A stretch of 64,000 nucleotides of DNA, taken from positions 16,150 to 80,149 of the forward strand of contig CAZMOE010000005.1 of the NCBI GenBank assembly GCA_964567855.1, read 5' to 3'. The DNA comes from an uncultured Prevotellaceae bacterium (GTDB taxonomy: Bacteria; Bacteroidota; Bacteroidia; Bacteroidales; UBA3663). The translations under genes and the position numbers were made by a program. The notes beneath the pieces were generated by a model. That model worked only from the letters and a program-made list of their open reading frames with translations, was not told the origin of the DNA and did not search any database. Positions 18,950 to 30,373 of this stretch are shown one piece after another (the stretch's first letter is position 1; each line of letters begins with the position of its first letter).

Positions 18950-19954
18950 TTAATAATAGTTTGATAATGCCCTTATTTGGTAAAGAGCATTTTTTGAATC
19001 GTTCGAATATCCTTCTCCATTTGAGTTCCCGTAATCGAATTTTAAGTCGAACTCTATACTTTGATCTGGGGATGTCGCTTCGAATTCAGCAGAGAGTGTT
19101 TTTCGTCCTTGATATTCTTTGGTTTCCGGGGACTTTTTGATTTTTATATTGAATCCTAAATTCTGGAAGATTGAAAGCCATTCATTGTAGGAAAATTGAA
19201 AAGAAAATCCGAATTGATTTGTCCAAAGTGAGGGCATACTTTCATATCTGTTAATGGAAAGCCAGTCGAAGATCCCATCGTTTTTGGAAAAATCCCACCA
19301 GGAATGACCATTGATATCACATGTAAAATCGCCGTCTCCTTTGTCTTTTACTTCCCGGCCTAACCGCCGAGCATCGTCGAGGGTACTTGTACCAAGTGTA
19401 AGACCATCTACAGGAAAGAAGGCGTTGACATTGCGTGATGAGTTGTTTGCGAGATTGTTGGTTGTTCCGATATTGAGGCTGGTGGACTTTTGGACTTTGT
19501 CACATTCTTCAATAACATCATCACTTACATTACTGATTTGTGATCTAAGTTTGTAGAATGCGTATTTAAAAGCTTCTGCATCATTTATGTACATTTCTGC
19601 CTGGATTCTGAAACTTCCGTTCAGGCAGATAAGCTTGACTCCTTTGTATAGGTTTAATTCAGCGGAAGCCATCTTTACGGTTTCTTTGGAATATTTGGTC
19701 GGATATTCAAAAGAGCGGAACATCGTAACATACATAGGTGTGTTATCTGTTTTGCTGACAGATACATAGTAGGTTTTTCCTTCATATTTAAATTTTACAT
19801 CTCCATCAGAGTCTATTTCAGGGACAAATCCTTCTTCTTTAAGGAATTCAGAGATTTGTGTGCGCAGTTGCAGTTGACTGGCGTTATATTCATCCGCATA
19901 AGAGGCAGTTATGTAGCAAAATGCGATAATGATAAATAAAAGTATCTTTCTCAT
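18950..19954 (-). CDS. secreted/lipoprotein-like protein with a YbjN-like N-terminal domain (operon gene G)
   Basis: 334 aa. Signal peptide MRKILLFIIIAFCYITASYA. The N-terminal region (ISEFLKEEGFVPEIDSDGDVKFKYEGKTYYVSVS...) resembles the YbjN/T3SS-chaperone-like fold family. The C-terminal ~170 aa are unrecognised. The start lies 19 nt after the kinase F stop. Confidence 0.5.
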   Translation of the reverse strand: MRKILLFIIIAFCYITASYADEYNASQLQLRTQISEFLKEEGFVPEIDSDGDVKFKYEGKTYYVSVSKTDNTPMYVTMFRSFEYPTKYSKETVKMASAELNLYKGVKLICLNGSFRIQAEMYINDAEAFKYAFYKLRSQISNVSDDVIEECDKVQKSTSLNIGTTNNLANNSSRNVNAFFPVDGLTLGTSTLDDARRLGREVKDKGDGDFTCDINGHSWWDFSKNDGIFDWLSINRYESMPSLWTNQFGFSFQFSYNEWLSIFQNLGFNIKIKKSPETKEYQGRKTLSAEFEATSPDQSIEFDLKFDYGNSNGEGYSNDSKNALYQIRALSNYY

Positions 19955-19973
19955 AATGATTTTGTTTAATGGA

Positions 19974-22900
19974 TTATTTGCGGTATTTGAAGATTTCGCG
20001 GTCTTTGTTATCTTTGAGGATAACGATTAAACGCACTTCAGACGGTAAGACGCTTTTGAGTTGTTGCACGAATATGTCTGTAGCATTTTGGTAGAAAGAC
20101 ATATCCTGCTCCGAAGTTTTGTATTTCGATTCCGGAATACGAAATACCATCTCGGTCGAAGTTTTATTGAGAATGGTCCAGGATTGCAGTGTCAAATGTT
20201 TTGCATCTTCCCCCAAGTCCAAGGGTAAGTTTTTCGCAACTTCCCTTACTTCTTTTTGCCAAGAGGAAGGTTCTGTATTGGAAATGTTCTCCCAATTTTC
20301 GCCATTCCATTGTTGCCTGATGATCCGATTCCCATTTTTATCGTAACCCGATCTTTGAGAGGGATTGGAAGATGCATCATCGTATGCATAGTTCCATTTG
20401 TGGATGCCGTTTTCGGCATTTGTAGGGGATTGATTTTTCCCGAAATATGTTTCGGCGACTTTTCTGCCATATTCATCATAGGCATATGTTGCCATGAAAA
20501 CATTGTAGGCCAATGTAGGTTGTTCTTGGGTGTCGTACACGCTGTAGGATTGTATATTGTTTCTTTCATCGTATACATACTTAATGAGGTGATATTTTGA
20601 GGAAGGATTGATCATCGGTTTGTCATATTGATCGTAGTAACGGGTTTCCAATTCCTTTCCTCTTTGATTTTTTACCATTCTTATTACAGCCCATCCGGTT
20701 GCAGGGTTAATGATGAGATTTCCGTAACCGTCGCCGGCCGCGATATAGTTTATATTTCCCCATTCATCATATTGCACGAATCCTTCGGGAACATATTGAC
20801 TGATAGGGGTGGGGTTGCCATCGGTTCCATAATAAGACTGGCGTATGATACGTCCTGTAGCATCGTACTCGTTTCTGGCAATGGCATATTTATCCGTTTT
20901 TCTGCAAACCAACTTCCCTTTTGCATCGAATGTGGTAGTTTCTATGCAGTTGCCGCGGTCGTCATATTTCCATTGATAGATGGCCGCATTGTCGTTATTG
21001 ATCGGGGTGAGATTTCCGGTCAGATCGTAATATCGGACTTCAGTATCTTGACCGCGGTCATTACACGTGTATTCGGCTTGATAGTATTTTTGTTGGCAAA
21101 GGGCCGGCTTCCCTTCTGCGTTGACGCAAGAGATTTTAATCAGGTTGTCATGTTCGTCGTAGGTGTATCGGTTGTTGACCCAATAGCGGGGCAATTTCCC
21201 TTGCGCATCTGACCAATAGTTGGCGAGAACGTTCCCCCGTTCGTCATATTCCGATTTCTTTATAGCCCAGCCTTCGGAAGTATTGCAGAGTTCCCCTTGG
21301 GCGTTGACGTAACGGATTTCGAGTTGATTTCCTCTGTCATCGTATGTGGCGAACCAGCCAACGTAAGCTTCATTGACGAGATTGGTTTTTTGGCGATGAG
21401 TGTCAAAAAACTCGCGATGGGTCTCGTTACCTGTGTCATCATAATCTGATTTCCATCCAGCGATCAGTTCACTGTTTAGAACCAGGCAGTCTTCTGTTCC
21501 ATTAAAAAACTCGACCAATTCAGAGTTTCCTTGCAAGGAGTATTTGGTATGTACGCAAGGGATTTCACCATTGACAGCAGGGATTGGGTTCCCTTGGGCA
21601 TCGAAATCTTTACGGTAGATTTGCCTGCCTTGGGCATCGTATCGGTATGAGATGCTTGCGGTACCCCACGAAGTCGCGGTCAATATGTCTTCAGCATTAT
21701 AAAAGGAGACATTAATCATGTTTCCTACTTCATCGTAAGTGCTACGTTGGATAGCGAAACCTTCATTCGTCATGAAAGGATCACCGACGCTGTCGAGGTA
21801 GACGATAGTTAAGGGATACCCGTAGACGTCGTTGGTACTCTTTTGTCCGTAATATCCTTCGTTGCATGCAATCGGTTGTTTGTCTTTTCCGAAAAAGGAT
21901 ATTTCTGTTCTAAACCCGTTGGCATCATATTGGTAACGGGCACCGGTGATACCTTCGGAAGAAGAATAAGTCGGTTGATTGTCAATGCCAAAGTAGAATT
22001 GTTCGATGATAACTCCATTGGAGATGGTTTGCTCGGAGCCGGCGACATTGCAATCTCCCCGTAAGGAGAGGTTTCCATTTAGATCTTCATAAGATTGTTT
22101 GATAGTGTTACCCCATTTATCTACATAATTGCGACATACAGGAATGTTAAGATCTTTTTCCCCTGCCGGACCATAAGAGGGAGAGAGATAGGTGAACCGT
22201 ATGGGGTCATCGGCCTCATTATATTCTCGTGTGCGTATGGCCATTCCGCTTTTGGTTGCTTTGGGCTGTCCGTCATAACCGGTAAAAATCTCTTCTTTTA
22301 CGCGTCCTTTTTCATCCAAGACATATTTCCGGCCGTAAAGTCCGTCGGCGTCGCAAACGCGGGCGTTTTGGAAGCTCGCATATTTAAGTTCCGTAACGTG
22401 GCCTGCGTCATCATAGGTAAGTAGGTAACGCGAAACTTTTCCGTGTGCATCACCTTCGTCCATATTGGAGGTAAATGTCGTGACGGTTTGAGCACTTAGG
22501 TTCTTTTCGGTCCCATACTCATCGTCGTAGCGGAAAACCACGACGTTCAGGTCCTTATTGATATAGTCTTTGACCATTAAAACCTTGCCATGAGGGTCTA
22601 AAATTTTTATGTAATCAAGACTGCCGCTCTCGTTATAATAAAATTTACTGTCGGTAGGCCTTTCTATATCATCTGTAGTTGAATGTTTGATAATGCTACC
22701 CTTACTATTGATGTAAGACATGCGCAAAAGTTTGCGGCGGCAATATTCAAGACGATAGGAGGCGGTTCGGTGTGCGACTTCATCGTCAGACAGTTCATGG
22801 ATGCCCACCGGCACGCCCCATTCTTCGACATAGTCTTTGTAATAATATATCTTTGTCCGGGTATAATCCCACCAATAGATGCCAAGACCGATAACGAGAA

Positions 22901-23774
22901 TAAATGCGGCGGCAATAGAGATCTTTATCCCTTTGGGAACTTTGGGCGGATAGATAGCTATGTGAAGGGCTTTTTTAAATTCCTCGCAGCTTTGGTAACG
23001 TTCTTCCTCTTTTTTAGCTACAGCTTTGTCTACGACCTTTTGTACTTTTTCAGAGACGTATTTATAATATGTGCGTAGTCTTGGCAGCGGTTCTTCGACC
23101 ACTTTTTTGTTTATGTCTAACTCGGTCAATGTCGTGGTGTCATAAGGGGCGTTGCCCGTCAGCATCTGATGCAGGAGTACGCCGAGGGAATAGATATCGG
23201 AAGGGGTACCGAGATGCTTGCCCTGCACTTGTTCCGGGCTCATATAGGATGGAGTACCCATGATAAGGTTTTCCTCATCCTCTTCTTTCCCTTGTTTGAT
23301 GATTTTAGCGATGCCGAAATCCAGGATTTTGGGAATTCCTTCGTGAGTGATGATAATGTTGGAGGGTTTGATGTCGCGATGTAAGATGTGGTGCTTATGG
23401 GCATATCCTACAGCATCCAAAATCGGTTCGAACAGGGGGCAGATGCGGTCTTCAACAATAAGGCCGGAGACGGTTTCTATGTATTTGTCCAAACTGATAC
23501 CGTCGGCATATTCCATGATGAGATAAATATTGCCGGTTTCATCGATGTGATAGTTGATGAAATGCACGATATTCGGATGATTGAGTTCCGCCAGATGTTC
23601 TGCTTCTTCTTGCAAATGCCGACGGGTAAAGTCATTGACCATGTCGGCATTGATAACCTTGATAGCGACTTTCTGCTGTTTGATGAATTTGTGTTCTGCT
23701 AAATAGACGCTACCCATACCACCTTTGCCGATATATGAAGTGATGGTATAGTTGAGTATTTCTTTTCCGATCAT
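19974..23774 (-). CDS. Hanks-type Ser/Thr protein kinase - TM - large YD/RHS-like repeat ectodomain (operon gene F)
   Basis: 1266 aa. Kinase motifs GKGGMGSVY, VAIKVI, HRDIKPSNIII, DFGIAK and GTPSYMSPEQ. TM helix IKISIAAAFILVIGLGIYWW. About 950 aa follow, carrying about 20 YD-type motifs (YDDRGN, YDERGN, YDEHDN, YDATGR, YDEWGN, YDEYGR...). Confidence 0.85.
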   Translation of the reverse strand: MIGKEILNYTITSYIGKGGMGSVYLAEHKFIKQQKVAIKVINADMVNDFTRRHLQEEAEHLAELNHPNIVHFINYHIDETGNIYLIMEYADGISLDKYIETVSGLIVEDRICPLFEPILDAVGYAHKHHILHRDIKPSNIIITHEGIPKILDFGIAKIIKQGKEEDEENLIMGTPSYMSPEQVQGKHLGTPSDIYSLGVLLHQMLTGNAPYDTTTLTELDINKKVVEEPLPRLRTYYKYVSEKVQKVVDKAVAKKEEERYQSCEEFKKALHIAIYPPKVPKGIKISIAAAFILVIGLGIYWWDYTRTKIYYYKDYVEEWGVPVGIHELSDDEVAHRTASYRLEYCRRKLLRMSYINSKGSIIKHSTTDDIERPTDSKFYYNESGSLDYIKILDPHGKVLMVKDYINKDLNVVVFRYDDEYGTEKNLSAQTVTTFTSNMDEGDAHGKVSRYLLTYDDAGHVTELKYASFQNARVCDADGLYGRKYVLDEKGRVKEEIFTGYDGQPKATKSGMAIRTREYNEADDPIRFTYLSPSYGPAGEKDLNIPVCRNYVDKWGNTIKQSYEDLNGNLSLRGDCNVAGSEQTISNGVIIEQFYFGIDNQPTYSSSEGITGARYQYDANGFRTEISFFGKDKQPIACNEGYYGQKSTNDVYGYPLTIVYLDSVGDPFMTNEGFAIQRSTYDEVGNMINVSFYNAEDILTATSWGTASISYRYDAQGRQIYRKDFDAQGNPIPAVNGEIPCVHTKYSLQGNSELVEFFNGTEDCLVLNSELIAGWKSDYDDTGNETHREFFDTHRQKTNLVNEAYVGWFATYDDRGNQLEIRYVNAQGELCNTSEGWAIKKSEYDERGNVLANYWSDAQGKLPRYWVNNRYTYDEHDNLIKISCVNAEGKPALCQQKYYQAEYTCNDRGQDTEVRYYDLTGNLTPINNDNAAIYQWKYDDRGNCIETTTFDAKGKLVCRKTDKYAIARNEYDATGRIIRQSYYGTDGNPTPISQYVPEGFVQYDEWGNINYIAAGDGYGNLIINPATGWAVIRMVKNQRGKELETRYYDQYDKPMINPSSKYHLIKYVYDERNNIQSYSVYDTQEQPTLAYNVFMATYAYDEYGRKVAETYFGKNQSPTNAENGIHKWNYAYDDASSNPSQRSGYDKNGNRIIRQQWNGENWENISNTEPSSWQKEVREVAKNLPLDLGEDAKHLTLQSWTILNKTSTEMVFRIPESKYKTSEQDMSFYQNATDIFVQQLKSVLPSEVRLIVILKDNKDREIFKYRK

Positions 23775-23792
23775 AATTTTGTGCTTTGTGTT

Positions 23793-24314
23793 TTATAGAT
23801 TAATGAGAACAGAGACCATATTAATGGCAAATCCTACCCATGCCCAGGTGGCAATTTGAGAGGCTCGGCGGGGTGTTTCTTCTTTCATGGTGAAATACAT
23901 AATCCAACCGACCAATGGTATTAAAAATGCCAATATATTGAGACCTATCGATGGCTCATCTTTTTTTGCTGGCGTGAGAGGTACGTATGCCGGCGCCGCA
24001 GGTTGCACGGCGTGAGAAGAAGATTCACACTTTGTCTCTGCTTCGAATGGCCGGGCACTTTTAAGGGGTAACATGGCGTAGATTTGCGCCCAAGGTAGCG
24101 GGATATGATTTGCCAGCATGATGGGGGCACCGGGAGCTATCTCGATGCTGCGATTGTTGATATATTCGCCGTTTAACGTTGAGCCGTTTTTGCTTATATC
24201 TTTGTATATATAGCGTCCTCCGCTGATGCTGATCTCCGCATGAACTCGGCTGATGTTGTTGTCTGTGACGACGATGTCGCAAGAATTAGAGCGACCGATG
24301 GTAATGGATTTCAT
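23793..24314 (-). CDS. FHA domain protein with a C-terminal 2-TM hairpin (operon gene E)
   Basis: 173 aa. FHA signature (ITIGRSNSCDIVVTDNNISRVHAEI...KDISKNGSTLNG). The C-terminal IGLNILAFLIPLVGWIMYF...WAWVGFAINMVSVLINL is homologous to the C-terminus of kinase D. The start overlaps the kinase D stop (ATGA). Confidence 0.8.
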   Translation of the reverse strand: MKSITIGRSNSCDIVVTDNNISRVHAEISISGGRYIYKDISKNGSTLNGEYINNRSIEIAPGAPIMLANHIPLPWAQIYAMLPLKSARPFEAETKCESSSHAVQPAAPAYVPLTPAKKDEPSIGLNILAFLIPLVGWIMYFTMKEETPRRASQIATWAWVGFAINMVSVLINL

Positions 24315-25678
24315 GAAAATTGTAGGATAAAATTAAGTATCATGTTTATGGCAAAACCGATCCAGGCTATTTTAGCGGCTGTGTGTGCCGCTTGGGGCCT
24401 TTGTTCTTTCCAGACGCCCCAAAGCACCCATCCGACGATCGGCACAAAAAAGGACAAGATTCCCAATCCGATGCCGAGACCTGCTCGTGTCGGAGGCTGT
24501 GGGGGAGGCGGAGGTGGTAGAGTAACGGTTTGGGGCAAACGTTCTTTGAGCATTTGGATTACTGATTCCCATTCAAGCCGAATTTCCGGGCGACCTGCGA
24601 GACAAACTTCCGGCAAGGCATATTCCTGTTGCTCCGGGATAGCATAAGGAAATGACTCGGATCCGTTGTGTAGATAGCGTCCGTCGACACCCGTGCCGTT
24701 AGTACTGTGGTCTTCAATCTCAATGATGGCGCCGGTAGGACTTGTTTTCAGGTATTTATAGTGGATTTTGAGATGGTTAGAGCTTACATATTCATTGTTG
24801 ATGACGATGTCACAATCACCTCTTCCGACTGTCACTACGGCCCCGCTGACTTTTGTCTCGAGTCTTTCCGGTTCTGAAATCATTTCGTCAATGAGGGCCT
24901 GTTTGAATTTTGCTGCCGTTTGGAACCGGTTTAACATATTCTTATCGGTGGCCTTGAAGATGATGTTTTGGATTTCATCGGAAAGTTCGGGACGCAGGTC
25001 CTTGGCTCTTGGGAAATCATGATTCAAGATCTCCATCTTGGTTGCAAAGTCATTACTTTGTTTTGTGATGGCATGTTTTCCGGTGAGCATGTAGTGGAGC
25101 AGACAACCTAAGGAATAGATATCTGTCCGGTGGTCGATGCTTAATCCTTTTACTTGTTCCGGACTCATATAACCGTCGGTACCTACACACATGCCGATGG
25201 TCTGTCCGGTCGTGGTGTTCATGTCTTTGGCGATGCCAAAATCGATGACACAAATGTTGCCATCCGGTCGGATCATGATATTGGACGGTTTTATGTCGCG
25301 GTGGATTTTGTTGACGTTGTGTATATATATGAATGCGTCCAAGATTTTTCCCATCAGCTGTTTCGCCTCTTTTTCAGAATACGGCCCGTGATCTTCTACT
25401 TGCTTTTGTATGGTTTTTCCCTCCACGTATTCCATGGGTAGATAGAGGTTTCCTTTCTCGTCTGAAAAGGTCTCGCCGATAATCTTTACCACCGAGGGAT
25501 GGTTCATGCTTTTGAGGGATTTCGCTTCCGTGTCAAAGAATGCCCGGAAATTTGGAATACTTACGTATTCGCATTTCAACATCTTGATGGCTACGGAATG
25601 ACCATTGGGAGCCTTCCCTCTGTAAACGGCACCCATACCGCCCTGTCCGATTTCTTCTTCGAGAATGTAATTGTGCAT
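24311..25678 (-). CDS. Hanks-type Ser/Thr protein kinase - FHA - Pro-rich linker - 2-TM hairpin (operon gene D)
   Basis: 455 aa. Kinase motifs GQGGMGAVY, VAIKML, HRDIKPSNIMI, DFGIAKD and GTDGYMSPEQ, with a Thr-rich activation loop (NTTTGQT). FHA domain (VVTVGRGDCDIVINNEYVSSNHLKI...DHSTNGTGVDG), a PPPPPPQPP linker, then GLGILSFFVPIVGWVLWGVW...IAWIGFAINMILNFIL. Confidence 0.85.
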   Translation of the reverse strand: MHNYILEEEIGQGGMGAVYRGKAPNGHSVAIKMLKCEYVSIPNFRAFFDTEAKSLKSMNHPSVVKIIGETFSDEKGNLYLPMEYVEGKTIQKQVEDHGPYSEKEAKQLMGKILDAFIYIHNVNKIHRDIKPSNIMIRPDGNICVIDFGIAKDMNTTTGQTIGMCVGTDGYMSPEQVKGLSIDHRTDIYSLGCLLHYMLTGKHAITKQSNDFATKMEILNHDFPRAKDLRPELSDEIQNIIFKATDKNMLNRFQTAAKFKQALIDEMISEPERLETKVSGAVVTVGRGDCDIVINNEYVSSNHLKIHYKYLKTSPTGAIIEIEDHSTNGTGVDGRYLHNGSESFPYAIPEQQEYALPEVCLAGRPEIRLEWESVIQMLKERLPQTVTLPPPPPPQPPTRAGLGIGLGILSFFVPIVGWVLWGVWKEQRPQAAHTAAKIAWIGFAINMILNFILQFS

Positions 25679-25724
25679 ATTTTACTGATTTAGCATTGTT
25701 TGTACTGAAGACTTTATTCCGGAT

Positions 25725-27515
25725 TCAGACCTGAACGGTAGAAGGTGCGGATTCTTCTTTAGGGGATGTTGCAGAAGAATCAGCAGGAGCGGACTCCCCG
25801 TCGTTTTTTATTTCGTGGCTGCTGTCTCCTTCCGTCGATTTATCACTCGGAAGGGTAGTTCCTGGATTGTTTTGGGAAATGCTATCTTTTGCACTATCTA
25901 TTACTTCGGTTATCTTAGGCTTAGACTGGCCGGAATCACTTGTTTCGTGTGTTTGTTTGTCGGGAAATTGAAAGAAGAAAGTGAAGATAGTATCAGAACC
26001 ATTTATAGAAAAAACGGCAGAATCATTTTCAGGATAATCGTTTTTTTTCTTTAAAATGATTGTAGTTGTAGTACTATTCTTAGATTTGATTTCAATTTTG
26101 GGAGAGACCTTTATGATGGAGTCCTGAGCCATTTCAGATATAGATCTCTTCCATAAAGACTTGCCGGCCGGATTCTTGATTTCGATTTGGGAAGAATAGC
26201 CTGGTGTGATGGAAACTAATATTCCATTTTTATTAGCCTTTATGGAACCCAAATTTACCGGTGTGACGGGACGTTTGATGATCTCCTTATTTGCTTCATT
26301 TTTCGAATTGAAAGGGGAAACTTTGAAATGAAAAGTGCGTCTATGGCGGCCGTCTTGCAGAGTGAATGAACATTCTTCTTCTTTTTCAAGATTGACACCA
26401 TCTTTTATTTGCAAGGAAATACGATCTTCTTCCTTTTCGGTGATGGAAAGCATGTCGACATCATACAGAACGGAATCCTGATTGGCTTTAAAGCCGGCCT
26501 CATGCCAAATGAAATCGCCTGAAGAATTTTGTATGAGAGTCTCGTCTTCTCTAAAGATAATGGTACATATTTTTTTGTTTTGAGGAATGTTTATTATTCC
26601 GAAATCTTCAGTGATGGATTGAGGAGAGAGAGATTCCCAAAGGAAATAACCTCCACCACCGAGCAATAACAGCGCTAAAGCAAGGAGGCTAAACTGTAAA
26701 ATGTTTTTTTTGCGCTTGTCATCGTTCTTGGAATGTCCTCTTTTTCCGGTGGTGGTAATCGAAAATTCTACCAATTCGCAGGTGATGTTGTCTAATCCTC
26801 CGTTTTCGCGGGCCTGTTCAATCAGAGTATCGGCACGATGCTGCATATTCGTGCCGATTTTACCGGCAATTTTAGCAATGGTCGTATTCGGCACCATGTT
26901 GCTGAGCCCATCGGAGCAAAGGAGGAAAACATCGCCGGCCTGGGGGAGGATGGCCTCCTCCCTGATGGTTGCCGGTTGCATGTTGGGAATGCCTAAGGCG
27001 TTTGTGATTTCGTTTTTACGGGGATGGTGTTCCGCCTCGGCTTCACTGATCTGTCCTGCGTCGACCAAAGTCTGTACAAAAGAATGATCTTTGGTCAATT
27101 GTTTGATAGTGGATTCTCGGATCAGGTAAATGCGGCTGTCTCCCACATGGCCGATGTACACTTTGCCGTTACGCACCAATAGAAGCACGCACGTTGAACC
27201 CATTCCTGTCAGTTCGGGGTGCATTTGGGCGTGGAGCAGAATGTTTCTATTGGCTGTAAATATAGCTTCGGTGATGGCTTCATTAGGGTCCGCATGGTAA
27301 TTGTCTCGTAAGTAGGCCAATATCGAGTCGACGGCGATATGTGAGGCTGTAGCACCTCCGACATGTCCCCCCATACCGTCGCAAACTACGGCCACACGGC
27401 CGTTAGGAGTATCGTCGAACCCTAAGAAATCTTCATTGGCGGCGCGTTTACAGCCAACATCTGTCGCTCCGACGATTTGGCAATATTGGCTATAGTCCTC
27501 TAAGTTGGTTTTCAT
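25725..27515 (-). CDS. PP2C-family Ser/Thr phosphatase - TM - extracytoplasmic beta-rich region with a Ser/Asp/Glu-rich tail (operon gene C)
   Basis: 596 aa. PP2C motifs (TDVGCKRAANEDF, VVCDGMGGHVGG, LLCSDGLSN, GGLDNITC), TM helix ILQFSLLALALLLLGGGGYFLW, about 240 aa unrecognised, then a low-complexity acidic/Ser tail. Confidence 0.85.
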   Translation of the reverse strand: MKTNLEDYSQYCQIVGATDVGCKRAANEDFLGFDDTPNGRVAVVCDGMGGHVGGATASHIAVDSILAYLRDNYHADPNEAITEAIFTANRNILLHAQMHPELTGMGSTCVLLLVRNGKVYIGHVGDSRIYLIRESTIKQLTKDHSFVQTLVDAGQISEAEAEHHPRKNEITNALGIPNMQPATIREEAILPQAGDVFLLCSDGLSNMVPNTTIAKIAGKIGTNMQHRADTLIEQARENGGLDNITCELVEFSITTTGKRGHSKNDDKRKKNILQFSLLALALLLLGGGGYFLWESLSPQSITEDFGIINIPQNKKICTIIFREDETLIQNSSGDFIWHEAGFKANQDSVLYDVDMLSITEKEEDRISLQIKDGVNLEKEEECSFTLQDGRHRRTFHFKVSPFNSKNEANKEIIKRPVTPVNLGSIKANKNGILVSITPGYSSQIEIKNPAGKSLWKRSISEMAQDSIIKVSPKIEIKSKNSTTTTIILKKKNDYPENDSAVFSINGSDTIFTFFFQFPDKQTHETSDSGQSKPKITEVIDSAKDSISQNNPGTTLPSDKSTEGDSSHEIKNDGESAPADSSATSPKEESAPSTVQV

Positions 27516-27524
27516 ATAGCGAGG

Positions 27525-28094
27525 TTATAATTGGGGGATGGCAAGGAAGATGAATTTTGAGGCTCCGATGACTATGATATCATTGGTATGAATTTTGGTC
27601 TTTTCACTGACGAACGAGCCATTGATGTACACACCATTGGAGGAATTCAAATCATCGGCCCAAAAGATATTATCGCCGTTTCTGTATAAAATAAGCAGGT
27701 GTTCGGATGAAATGTGCGAATCGTTTGTGATTGGAATGTCGCAGGTATTGTTTCTTCCGATGATATTTCGTCCTTCGTATATTTTATACACTTCTCCTAA
27801 GGGAGATTGGTCGTACGAGATGAGTAATCCGACTAATTTACGTCCTCCATCGTTAGGTCCAACGGTGGTGCCGTTGAGAGTGCGGATAACGGTTCTTCCT
27901 CCTCCGACGTTTGCACCGGGGGTGGATATGGGCTTGGTGGGTATTTCTCCTGTACTGCTTTCAAAGGGGTTGTTGACTTTTGTTCTTTCTGAGTTTACTT
28001 GAGTGCTTGTCGCATTGGTAGGACAAAAGGGGCATTGATCGCCATAGATGCTTGAATCGTACTGGTGCCCGTTGGGACATTTTTTAGTTGCCAT
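27525..28094 (-). CDS. zinc-ribbon plus FHA domain protein (operon gene B)
   Basis: 189 aa. CPNGHQYDSSIYGDQCPFCP, a Thr/Ser/Pro-rich linker, then FHA (YEGRNIIGRNNTCDIPITNDSHISSEHLLI...DLNSSNGVYING). The stop is 9 nt before the PP2C start. Confidence 0.8.
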   Translation of the reverse strand: MATKKCPNGHQYDSSIYGDQCPFCPTNATSTQVNSERTKVNNPFESSTGEIPTKPISTPGANVGGGRTVIRTLNGTTVGPNDGGRKLVGLLISYDQSPLGEVYKIYEGRNIIGRNNTCDIPITNDSHISSEHLLILYRNGDNIFWADDLNSSNGVYINGSFVSEKTKIHTNDIIVIGASKFIFLAIPQL

Positions 28095-28130
28095 AAATGT
28101 TGTGGTTTAAATGATGAATGTATGATGTTT

Positions 28131-29645
28131 TTATTTGAAAAAGTCTGATGCTTTTTGCGGTTGGATAGCATGGTTATAACCTTGGGATATGCCGAGGAAT
28201 CCGGAGACAATAACTCCGGCAAAACGGCCGTGACAATCGAAAACAGGCGAGCCGCTGGCTCCTTGATGTATCGTGATATTATGCCCGTAAATGTATTCTC
28301 CTCGTTCTTGGGTGATTTCTCCGCTTTGGTTATTTGCTTCAAGTCCGATTTGGGTGCTGCCCAATGTAAAAGATTTCGGGAAACCGATGGTGTAGATTTT
28401 ATCGCCGACTTCCATATCTTCTGCATGGGCAATGTCTTTAAGGTTTACTATATGTTTTACATTGCTCGGGGTCTCTTTCGTGTTAGTTTGGATGATTGCG
28501 ATATCGACTTCTTCGTTGGAGCTGGTTTTGACAATAGAACAGCGGGTAAGATCATCTGTGCTGGAAACATGAGAATCATTTCGGCCGATACCTATCCATA
28601 GGATTTCATAATTTACTTCGACGGCATTTGCCATGGCATAATATTGATTTCTTTCCGATTTCTGTTGGCATTCATTTCCCAAGGTTATCAGTAAAGACTG
28701 GATGGCTTTTTTGATTGTTTCCGGATCTTTTCGAGCCTCTTTCCCCATTGGAGCAATAACATGTTTGTTGGTCATGATTTCTCCATGGGGTGAAATGAAA
28801 AAGCCAGTGCCGCTTGCTCCGACAACTCCGGGCGCTGCATCTCCGTCTTTGTCGATGTGGCAATAGTTGAGTTTTGAAAGTTGAGGTATGAGATCTCCGA
28901 TCGGACGGTCTTTGATTGTAACACTATAACCGGATTGTTGATAAATGAGTACCACGGAGTTTTTATACATTGCATAAATTTCGGCAGGAGTAAGTTCCTT
29001 GTTGACGTTGAACAACCATAAGAATATTCCTGTCACGACAATGGCAACGCCGGCAATGGCACTCCATGTTTTTACCTGAGGGCGCGGACGGGGAGATACC
29101 GGCGGATATATGCTTTCCCATTGGAGCGGATACTTTTGTGCCAACATGACGATGTCTCCTTTTTTGAGCGGGGCCTCTCCATGGATCCGTTGACCGTTTA
29201 CATAGGTGCCGTTAGTGGAATTACGATCGATGATGCTGATTTCGCCATTGCGTTTGCGGCAGAGAATGGCATGATGGGCCGAAACGTCGGCGATATTTTT
29301 ACAGATAATGTTGTCTGTTGCCCTTCCTATGGTTTTGGAATCTATTGTATCTGGCGTAATGCCGCTTCCTGCATTATTGTTACCGTGAACTATAGTCTTG
29401 TTGGGGGTTGATAAAGCCTGTTTCCAATCTATCACTTTGTTTCCAAGCTTTACTGTTTGTCCGGGAAGCAGTTTGGCTTCAAGAATGCGTTTCCCATCTA
29501 CGAATGTTCCATTCGTAGAGTTGAGATCTTTGATAGTTATTGAGCTTGAATCATCGATGATCAGGAGTGCATGACTTCGTGAAACGGAGTCATCGGCTAC
29601 AACAAAATCATTGGAGGAACTTTTGCCGATTTTGATGGTTTTCAT
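28131..29645 (-). CDS. FHA - FHA - TM - trypsin-like (S1/Trypsin_2-type) serine protease (operon gene A)
   Basis: 504 aa. FHA1 (IKIGKSSSNDFVVADDSVSRSHALL...DLNSTNGTFVDG), FHA2 (KTIGRATDNIICKNIADVSAHHAIL...DRNSTNGTYVNG), TM helix WSAIAGVAIVVTGIFLWLF. Putative triad His (GTGFFISPHGEIMTNKHVI), Asp (VDIAIIQT), Ser (GASGSPVFD). Confidence 0.8.
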   Translation of the reverse strand: MKTIKIGKSSSNDFVVADDSVSRSHALLIIDDSSSITIKDLNSTNGTFVDGKRILEAKLLPGQTVKLGNKVIDWKQALSTPNKTIVHGNNNAGSGITPDTIDSKTIGRATDNIICKNIADVSAHHAILCRKRNGEISIIDRNSTNGTYVNGQRIHGEAPLKKGDIVMLAQKYPLQWESIYPPVSPRPRPQVKTWSAIAGVAIVVTGIFLWLFNVNKELTPAEIYAMYKNSVVLIYQQSGYSVTIKDRPIGDLIPQLSKLNYCHIDKDGDAAPGVVGASGTGFFISPHGEIMTNKHVIAPMGKEARKDPETIKKAIQSLLITLGNECQQKSERNQYYAMANAVEVNYEILWIGIGRNDSHVSSTDDLTRCSIVKTSSNEEVDIAIIQTNTKETPSNVKHIVNLKDIAHAEDMEVGDKIYTIGFPKSFTLGSTQIGLEANNQSGEITQERGEYIYGHNITIHQGASGSPVFDCHGRFAGVIVSGFLGISQGYNHAIQPQKASDFFK

Positions 29646-30373
29646 AGTGTTTGCGGGTGGACCGACTGTTTTGTTAAGGCTGCTTGAAACCCGTTGAATG
29701 AGTTTTGTTTCACAGGAGCCGTTGATAGCCTATAGTTCCCCCGATTCGGCAAAATAAAATCAAGAATACCTTATTAAAAAGAAAAAGCGTGGGAAACTCT
29801 TCTTGCTTACCCCGCTTTTTCAGGCCTTTGCACTTGCCCACTTATCCGGATAAGCAACGCCGTTAGCCCACGCTGATGTATAGTATTATCCCCTCACTAT
29901 CTACGGACATTAATCATGCCCATAGATAGATATTGGGATGTGAATACGTCACATCTCGCCGACATTTCGTTGCTGTTTTTCTTTGGGGATAAGTTTTCAA
30001 ATGTGCAAAGTTTGAAAAAGACCAAAGCAAACGTCGAAAACGTCTTTCTTTTAAATAAAGACCACCACCCCTGTACACTTTCCAATGAAAATTGGTATCC
30101 AACAAGTTTCCCCTTGGGGCTAACAGGCGTTAAATGGTTGGGCAAATATATGGATTTTATCATTATATCATCTTGCTTTATGTGAAATTTTGTAATATTA
30201 AGTGCCTTTTTTGTTCCATTTTCCTGTTGAAAGCGTTAATTCCTTTCTTTATTAAAGGAATTAATCTGTTCAGTAGAGATTAATGAAAGTTTTAATGATA
30301 AAAACAAAGCAGAAAGAAGAAAAGATGGTCTGTGGTACTTTTTTTACAGAATGGTATTCGAAATATGAACGGC

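Follow-up and report, generated by a model that had tools for sequence, protein, structure and literature searches.

The described systems closest to the locus considered here are membrane-anchored proteases of the DegS and MarP type and the FHA-regulated membrane effector Rv1747. The locus lies in a 64,000-nucleotide (nt) stretch of DNA from an uncultured Prevotellaceae bacterium (assembly GCA_964567855.1, contig CAZMOE010000005.1, positions 16,150 to 80,149), called the window below. Its first gene, gene A, encodes a PDZ-less HtrA-like protease that is carried on a single transmembrane (TM) helix behind a tandem forkhead-associated (FHA) head and is genetically coupled to Hanks kinases and a PP2C phosphatase, a description that the evidence below firmly supports. 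Hanks-kinase signalling in bacteria is known mainly from Actinobacteria and Firmicutes, and in the Bacteroidota that dominate the gut it is, to our knowledge, almost unexplored.

The HtrA proteases (DegS, DegP, DegQ, AlgW and HtrA1; MEROPS S1C) combine a chymotrypsin fold with a His-Asp-Ser triad and oligomerise on substrate binding. In DegS a short N-terminus leads into a TM anchor that keeps the protease core near the membrane. MarP (Rv3671c) of Mycobacterium tuberculosis is also a membrane-anchored periplasmic S1 protease, without a PDZ domain; its anchor is multi-pass, with four TM helices, and a disulfide is said to stabilise its active site. MarP processes an envelope protein (PMC6628586, PMC12183614), and the peptidoglycan hydrolase RipA is processed by it (PMC6628586).

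Rv1747 is an ABC exporter with an N-terminal module of FHA1, disordered linker and FHA2, and its kinase is co-encoded. It is positively regulated through phosphorylation, PknF being the kinase (PMC3138270), and threonines of its linker are phospho-acceptors (PMC8339232). A cytoplasmic FHA or FHA-like domain joined by one TM helix to a periplasmic part is also the layout of SctD/YscD/PrgH of type III secretion systems (T3SS) and of GltG of Myxococcus gliding; there the periplasmic part is no enzyme but a structural domain of a ring or scaffold. At the level of the gene cluster, the actinobacterial fhaA-fhaB(fipA)-pstP-rodA-pbpA-pknA-pknB genes combine two Hanks kinases with several FHA proteins and a membrane PP2C that has an ectodomain.

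Architecture of the gene A product

Gene A starts with ATG and is read from 29645 to 28131 (Table 1). A sequence-only reading of the window had delimited the same open reading frame (ORF), without giving its strand, and had described two FHA domains, a single hydrophobic helix and, with no PDZ domain, a protease domain in which the His, Asp and Ser contexts of chymotrypsin-fold S1 enzymes stand in order. That structural reading is right, and the strand is the minus strand. Codon mapping places every string it had quoted in the translation: PPVSPRPRPQ at residues 181-190, WSAIAGVAIVVTGIFLWLF at 194-212, TNKHVI at 292-297, DIAIIQT at 381-387 and GASGSPVF at 462-469. Pfam finds FHA (PF00498) in two stretches, at 118.6 bits against a cutoff of 20.7 (best stretch 4-68; whole-protein E 1.6e-34), and matches the C-terminal part to Trypsin_2 (279-478, E 9.1e-16) and Trypsin (371-494, E 1.8e-07). 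No PDZ match appears at E<=0.01, and the chain ends 40 residues past Ser464. An AlphaFold2 (AF2) model built on 120 homologues, with a mean predicted local distance difference test score (pLDDT) of 90.1, separates the two FHA domains, each a beta-sandwich, the helix and a compact beta-rich domain at residues 220-503; the length of the two-helix insert within this last domain differs among aligned relatives. The signal for this architecture is far beyond chance, and the architecture recurs full-length in relatives.

The chymotrypsin fold, which had been read from the order of the catalytic motifs, is borne out by structural comparison. The top 50 Foldseek matches of the protease domain in the PDB are all HtrA-family protease domains, among them DegP, DegS-deltaPDZ, HtrA1, DegQ, AlgW and Deg1 (E about 1e-11, target-normalised template modelling score up to 0.79). 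A profile of the domain aligned to the PDB pairs each catalytic block with its counterpart in MucD and HtrA1: GTGFFIS..TNrHV with GSGFIIS..TNnHV around the His, DVAIIQ with DVAVLKI around the Asp and GASGSPVF with GNSGGPLF around the Ser. The blocks that align with DegP and DegS take the general form GxGF(I/F)IS..TNxHV, DxA(v/i)(l/i) and GxSG(G/S)P. Residue conservation was counted in an alignment of 120 relatives of gene A. The H295/D381/S464 triad is invariant there and is kept in 74 of the 75 FHA-bearing representatives of 50%-identity clusters, which indicates that catalysis is under selection. From the fold matches and the profile alignment to HtrA catalytic residues, the protease is predicted to be catalytically intact.

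The sole FHA-bearing representative that departs from H-D-S is P0157 (410 residues; one FHA domain, TM helix and protease), where the aligned residues are R-N-S; this reflects either an alignment error or a rare derivative that is a pseudo-protease. Just ahead of the catalytic-Ser strand, the block GLEANNQSGEITQERG (residues 434-449, positions 28299-28346) is nearly invariant in the 120 relatives, beyond most of the fold, and is a candidate loop for binding a substrate or a partner. The model is less confident over residues ~421-440, a stretch that overlaps the start of this block. Cys262 and Cys369 (positions 28860-28862 and 28539-28541) occur together in 92 relatives, Cys369 alone in 22, Cys262 alone in one and neither in five (Fisher p=0.002), a co-occurrence that is compatible with, and hints at, a periplasmic disulfide.

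The FHA head and membrane topology

Phosphothreonine contacts in FHA domains are made by the set G-R, S-x-x-H and N-G. FHA2 presents it as G107-R108, S122..H125 and N145-G146; G107, H125 and N145 are found in all 120 relatives, S122 in 118 and R108 in 100, with Lys in the other 20. FHA1 has G7-K8, S22..H25 and N45-G46 at these places, with G7 kept in 117 relatives, S22 and H25 in 119 each and N45 in 109, while position 8 is Arg in 90 and Lys in 27. Both domains thus keep the residues for phosphothreonine binding, and binding itself is predicted for both. The linker between them holds Thr and Ser; T80 is Thr in 55 of the 120 relatives.

The head is followed by a single hydrophobic segment of 19-20 residues (196-214). 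A hydrophobic segment stands ahead of the protease in the 75 FHA-bearing representatives as well, with its hydrophobicity conserved and its sequence not. Gene A has no signal peptide, and its chain opens straight into the FHA fold. The FHA-less proteins most closely paralogous to the protease domain bear N-terminal signal peptides, which places this protease clade outside the cytoplasm. Absence of a signal peptide, the cytoplasmic chemistry of FHA domains and kinases, a mild positive-inside bias and the analogy with HtrA together point to an N-in/C-out topology, with the FHA head probably cytoplasmic and the protease periplasmic. The AF2 model leaves only about 5-15 residues between the TM helix and the protease core.

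Relation to described families

How does this protein stand to the systems outlined above? The HtrA proteases are its best structural matches and share its fold, triad and catalytic blocks, and DegS shares the N-terminal TM anchor with the protease core near the membrane. Gene A differs from them in having no PDZ domain, in carrying a tandem-FHA head of ~215 residues where DegS has a short N-terminus, and in its two-helix insert. Its NCBIfam bit scores miss the HtrA cutoffs (TIGR02037, 37 against 416; TIGR02038, 17 against 423; NF041521, 25.9 against 450). With MarP it shares the layout of a membrane-anchored, PDZ-less periplasmic S1 protease and weak sequence matches (PDB 3k6y/3k6z); however, the score for NF033740 is 36.3 bits against 250, the anchor is a single TM helix, and MarP has no FHA or other reader domain. 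Both features of the Rv1747/PknF pair, the FHA1-linker-FHA2 module on a membrane effector and the co-encoded kinase, are present at gene A, and the Rv1747 FHA domain (6cah) is among its best PDB sequence matches. Here the effector is not an ABC exporter but a protease, predicted to be periplasmic, to which one TM helix leads, and the linker threonines are only partly conserved.

Further matches fall to Pfam Yop-YscD_cpl and to NCBIfam GltG (67.7 bits, cutoff 650). The best NCBIfam FHA match is FhaB/FipA, at 89.7 bits under a cutoff of 125. Unlike the actinobacterial cluster, the operon of gene A contains no RodA or PbpA genes and no PASTA domain, and has instead the protease, a YD-repeat kinase and a secreted YbjN-like protein. 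NCBIfam contains no family specific to gene A, every match lying well below its cutoff, and public annotations of its relatives are generic ('FHA domain-containing protein'). Full-text literature searches returned no paper on an FHA-TM-trypsin/HtrA fusion or on this Bacteroidales operon, and the Aravind-lab papers on conflict systems mention FHA and trypsin only separately. Gene A is a real, conserved and uncharacterised variant of membrane-anchored HtrA-like proteases. It resembles both a DegS/MarP-type protease and an Rv1747-type FHA-regulated effector but is a member of neither, because the PDZ domain is absent, the scores are far under the cutoffs, and anchor and effector differ.

Distribution and genetic coupling

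The full architecture, at 44-57% identity to gene A, is represented by more than 490 clusters (90% identity, E<=1e-3), and a second subfamily, with ~27% identity and Bacteroides rodentium as an example, by more than 1280 (90% identity, E<=1e-20). A relative is encoded in 186 GTDB species genomes, mostly titled Bacteroidota; the few metagenome-assembled genomes titled Clostridium, Clostridia, Bacilli, Spirochaetaceae or Chlorobiaceae probably reflect mis-binning or sister lineages. When the protease domain alone was used, domain calls with in-house hidden Markov models for FHA and protease gave two FHA domains plus TM in 62 of the 144 nearest 50%-cluster representatives and one FHA domain plus TM in 13. 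The remainder look mostly like signal-peptide paralogues, gene-call fragments and proteins with other N-terminal heads.

Neighbourhoods were sampled at 80 loci from other species. A PP2C and a kinase adjoin the fusion in 73 of them, across Bacteroidota. In 48 loci (type 1) the fusion is followed by PP2C and then kinase, in the order A-B-C-D-E-F(-G) and down to 28% identity, and in 25 (type 2) one or more kinases and the PP2C lie just upstream of the fusion. As to the other seven, the sequence ends within about 250 nt of the gene in three (L018, L032, L039), offers an upstream flank of only 213 nt in one (L070), and runs out after the PP2C and before the downstream kinase in two (L019, L051); the seventh, L021 from an uncultured Bacteroidales, is a clear exception.

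The partners differ among loci and the fusion stays. The type-2 locus of Bacteroides rodentium (L076, 5567-15466, plus strand) reads FHA, Ser/Thr kinase, TPR, Ser/Thr kinase, PP2C, FHA, the FHA-FHA-TM-protease fusion, a WG-repeat protein, an outer-membrane protein (OMP) beta-barrel and an unknown protein. A Flectobacillus locus (L060) has a kinase with Sel1/TPR repeats in place of these partners. In L021 (176-11647, plus strand) the fusion ends an operon of Ig-like, OMP-barrel-like, DUF7129, TssR-like VWA, ABC ATPase and FtsX-like permease genes; proteins of the TssR-like VWA family are known from type VI secretion in Bacteroidota.

The operon and its surroundings

Gene A had been taken for the first gene of an operon and the best candidate for its effector, and the first of these labels holds. 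It heads a tight run of seven genes on one strand, the six that follow it being spaced by 36, 9, 46, -4, 18 and 19 nt; its first place is given by the 860-nt upstream gap with a terminator-like hairpin and by the A-first order in the 48 type-1 loci. Altogether the operon encodes five FHA domains, two kinases and one PP2C, and the protease is its only non-signalling catalytic domain, which fits the effector label.

Table 1. Positions of gene A, its parts, the other operon genes and the upstream hairpin in the window
Feature	Positions	Strand	Description and basis
Gene A	28131..29645	minus	504-residue FHA-FHA-TM-protease protein; stop codon 28131-28133; ORF list, translation, Pfam, AF2
FHA1	29412..29642	minus	residues 2-78; predicted cytoplasmic; beta-sandwich in model; Pfam 4-68
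Inter-FHA linker, low confidence	29349..29411	minus	residues 79-99; Thr/Ser/Pro-containing; pLDDT <50 at 87-92
FHA2, fully canonical	29109..29348	minus	residues 100-179; predicted cytoplasmic; second Pfam FHA stretch
Pro/Arg-rich juxtamembrane segment PPVSPRPRPQVKTW	29064..29108	minus	residues 180-194; pLDDT <50 at 187-195
Single TM helix	29004..29063	minus	residues 195-214; Kyte-Doolittle 2.26; AF2 helix
PDZ-less HtrA-like protease domain (S1, nearest S1C)	28134..29003	minus	residues 215-504; predicted periplasmic; Pfam, Foldseek, PDB profile
Two-helix insert between His and Asp, family-specific	28626..28742	minus	residues 302-340; helices 302-325 and 329-340 (model)
Catalytic His295 codon (TNKH)	28761..28763	minus	120/120 relatives; profile alignment
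Catalytic Asp381 codon (DIAIIQ)	28503..28505	minus	120/120 relatives; aligns to MucD DVAVLKI
Catalytic Ser464 codon (GASGSP)	28254..28256	minus	120/120 relatives; aligns to GNSGGP of MucD/HtrA1
Gene B	27525..28094	minus	soluble; Zn-ribbon-like part, Thr-rich disordered region and FHA (GarA/OdhI-like layout); Pfam, weak NCBIfam OdhI match
Gene C	25725..27515	minus	Stp1-like PP2C phosphatase, TM (275-293), ~300-residue variable ectodomain; Pfam/NCBIfam
Gene D	24311..25678	minus	Hanks kinase, FHA and C-terminal 2-TM hairpin
Gene E	23793..24314	minus	FHA and 2-TM hairpin homologous to that of gene D
Gene F	19974..23774	minus	Hanks kinase, TM (282-300), ~960-residue YD/Rhs-like ectodomain
Gene G	18950..19954	minus	signal-peptide protein; N-terminal YbjN / T3SS-chaperone-like fold and beta-rich C-terminal domain
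Terminator-like hairpin GAAAAAGCGGGG...CCCACGCUUUUUC with U-run	29771..29821	minus	fold -23.3 kcal/mol, z -1.79; ~125-175 nt before ATG

Gene B encodes 189 residues, with a CxxxH...CxxC zinc-ribbon-like motif at the N-terminus and the FHA domain at the C-terminus. Three threonines of its disordered region are conserved in 49 orthologues (T38 in 88%, T53 in 92% and T68, within G-x-T-V-I-R, in 98%) and are plausible FHA ligands; the layout and the T68 motif recall the ETTSVFR phospho-switch of GarA/OdhI. A PDB sequence search with the gene C ectodomain gave nothing significant. Genes D and E end in homologous 2-TM hairpins (24311-24475 and 23793-23950, minus strand; ..F(F/L)xPxVGW..., ...AWxGFAINM...), which suggests a shared membrane-docking module. 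The gene F ectodomain matches Pfam RHS_repeat and, in the PDB, only weakly the Rhs toxin Tse5; gene F is conserved full-length in type-1 operons, and it seems unusual for a bacterial Ser/Thr kinase to carry an ectodomain of YD repeats. Gene G has no Pfam match and nothing significant in a PDB sequence search. In its AF2 model (pLDDT 78) the N-terminal half resembles the folds of YbjN and of type III secretion chaperones (Foldseek E 3e-3 to 7e-3, target-normalised score ~0.6). A peptide-binding chaperone-like fold is odd for a secreted protein, and the gene G product is a candidate to interact with the gene A protease or to be cleaved by it.

The GC content of the operon (18950-29645) is 43.8% and that of gene G 37.8%, against ~50% in the housekeeping flanks (gltBD, carB, nrdD, tex), and none of six flanking window proteins was found in any of the 80 loci from other species. 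With its lower GC and unshared flanks the operon behaves as a cassette, possibly one that has moved horizontally. An assignment to a known anti-phage system was rejected, PADLOC giving only generic kinase and trypsin domain matches.

The upstream hairpin could be a plain terminator of an upstream transcript, isolating the operon, or a leader attenuator. The 860-nt gap also contains an 88-codon ORF (29897-30163), which has no homologue in the loci of other species and so is probably not a conserved operon member. A sigma-70 promoter scan gave 25 matches against 23.9 expected, Bacteroidota using other promoters, and the TAnnTTTG motif is not enriched (43 against 36.7). The only exact Bacteroides-type -7 box on the operon strand between the transporter gene and gene A, TATATTTG, lies at 30143-30150, upstream of the hairpin. 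A scan of the gap with Rfam gave chance-level matches only.

A proposed link from cytoplasmic phosphorylation to periplasmic proteolysis

Could phosphorylation inside the cell decide what is cleaved outside it? Gene A would be a bitopic inner-membrane protein with its protease directly on the periplasmic membrane face, as in DegS. Kinases D and F would write phosphothreonine on themselves, on the adaptor B or on the gene A linker, and the PP2C encoded by gene C would erase the marks. The FHA head of gene A would dock on them, and docking would recruit or cluster the protease beside membrane-anchored partners; a single TM helix is unlikely to carry allostery, so docking is expected to act in this way. 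Periplasmic cleavage would thereby be set by the cytoplasmic phosphorylation state, an inside-out control, with the ectodomains of F or C and the secreted protein G as candidate substrates. We give an even chance to this reading, in which D and F write the marks, C erases them and the marks bring the protease to nearby periplasmic targets. By analogy, the Rv1747/PknF precedent supports its reader-to-effector logic (PMC3138270, PMC8339232). A related reading is phosphorylation-gated ectodomain shedding, in which the cytoplasmic phosphothreonine state of the receptor-like kinases, or of adaptor B, would set when and where the FHA-docked protease cuts envelope proteins or periplasmic domains of its own signalling complex; this is a tentative proposal, with the chances leaning against it.

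Several observations weigh against inside-out control. The model has a predicted template modelling score (pTM) of 0.60, which leaves the arrangement of the domains relative to one another undefined. Lys8 of FHA1, shared with those 27 relatives, stands where Arg is canonical, and the positive-inside bias is mild, with 3 Lys or Arg in the 15 residues before the TM helix against 2 after it. L021 has the fusion without a kinase or PP2C nearby, so the coupling is not obligatory. Finally, the same data fit an outside-in or scaffold role, in which the periplasmic HtrA-like domain would be a sensor or a constitutive processing enzyme and information would flow from envelope to cell, as in DegS, with the FHA head replacing PDZ/RseA logic. 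A substrate-bound HtrA oligomer would then cluster six cytoplasmic FHA domains per trimer and nucleate or modulate a kinase/phosphatase signalosome. The HtrA fold and its membrane-proximal position do resemble DegS, the operon, which encodes five FHA domains along with several conserved Thr motifs, fits multivalent assembly, and the OMP beta-barrel genes next to the fusion, both at the type-2 locus and at L021, recall OMP-stress sensing by DegS. Yet the PDZ sensor domain, the signal input in DegS and DegP, is absent from gene A, and sensory input is already provided by two receptor-like kinases and a receptor-like phosphatase with ectodomains of their own. In other multidomain proteins, moreover, the FHA domain is the input to the fused effector, as in Rv1747 (PMC3138270) and, reportedly, EmbR. 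An outside-in role is judged rather unlikely, at about one chance in four.

The parallel with the mycobacterial cluster raises another possibility, that of an envelope-growth or division module in which the FHA head would bring a periplasmic processing protease to kinase-marked sites of cell-wall or outer-membrane biogenesis, there to mature envelope enzymes or to degrade them. Two FHA proteins, a membrane PP2C and two kinases are common to both operons, FhaB/FipA is the best FHA match, if below cutoff, and the weak MarP matches lead to a protease that processes RipA (PMC6628586). However, rodA, pbpA, PASTA and other cell-wall genes are missing from the operon, and low GC with unshared flanks looks like an accessory cassette and not a core growth locus, which makes such a module distinctly unlikely. 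Those cassette traits, GC below that of the flanks and a variable genomic neighbourhood, would also suit a conflict or anti-phage system whose kinases sense infection and whose protease is the toxic effector, and PADLOC does return matches, to PD-T4-6/mad6 for the kinases and to RT-Protease/LmuA/HamA models for the protease domain. These matches are generic and at domain level, though, and the system-specific partner sets are absent; an effector predicted to lie outside the cytoplasm, beside three partners with large ectodomains, is unlike abortive-infection logic, and the gene order is stably inherited across Bacteroidales families. A defence role is very improbable on this evidence. Least probable of all, and hardly credible, is a hydrophobic segment that does not span the membrane, or an inverted topology, either of which would leave the protease in the cytoplasm beside the FHA domains. 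The weak charge bias and a topology deduced from sequence leave room for it, but a hydrophobic helix of 19-20 residues whose hydrophobicity is conserved across the family, the signal peptides of FHA-less paralogues and the hint of a periplasmic disulfide at Cys262/Cys369 speak for a membrane span with the protease outside.

Implications

A phospho-reader and a periplasmic enzyme fused in one polypeptide make it a concrete and testable claim that cytoplasmic Ser/Thr phosphorylation can control periplasmic proteolysis. Such inside-out control would be the reverse of the logic of DegS and of regulated intramembrane proteolysis. Cultured strains carry the fusion, among them Mediterranea massiliensis (with the operon type seen here), Bacteroides rodentium (type 2), Xylanibacter caecicola and Flectobacillus longus, which makes genetics feasible, and with the operon a compact model is at hand for a multivalent FHA/phosphothreonine signalosome. 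If phosphorylation-gated shedding proves true, it would amount to a dedicated inside-out signalling route that crosses the inner membrane and is common among gut Bacteroidota.

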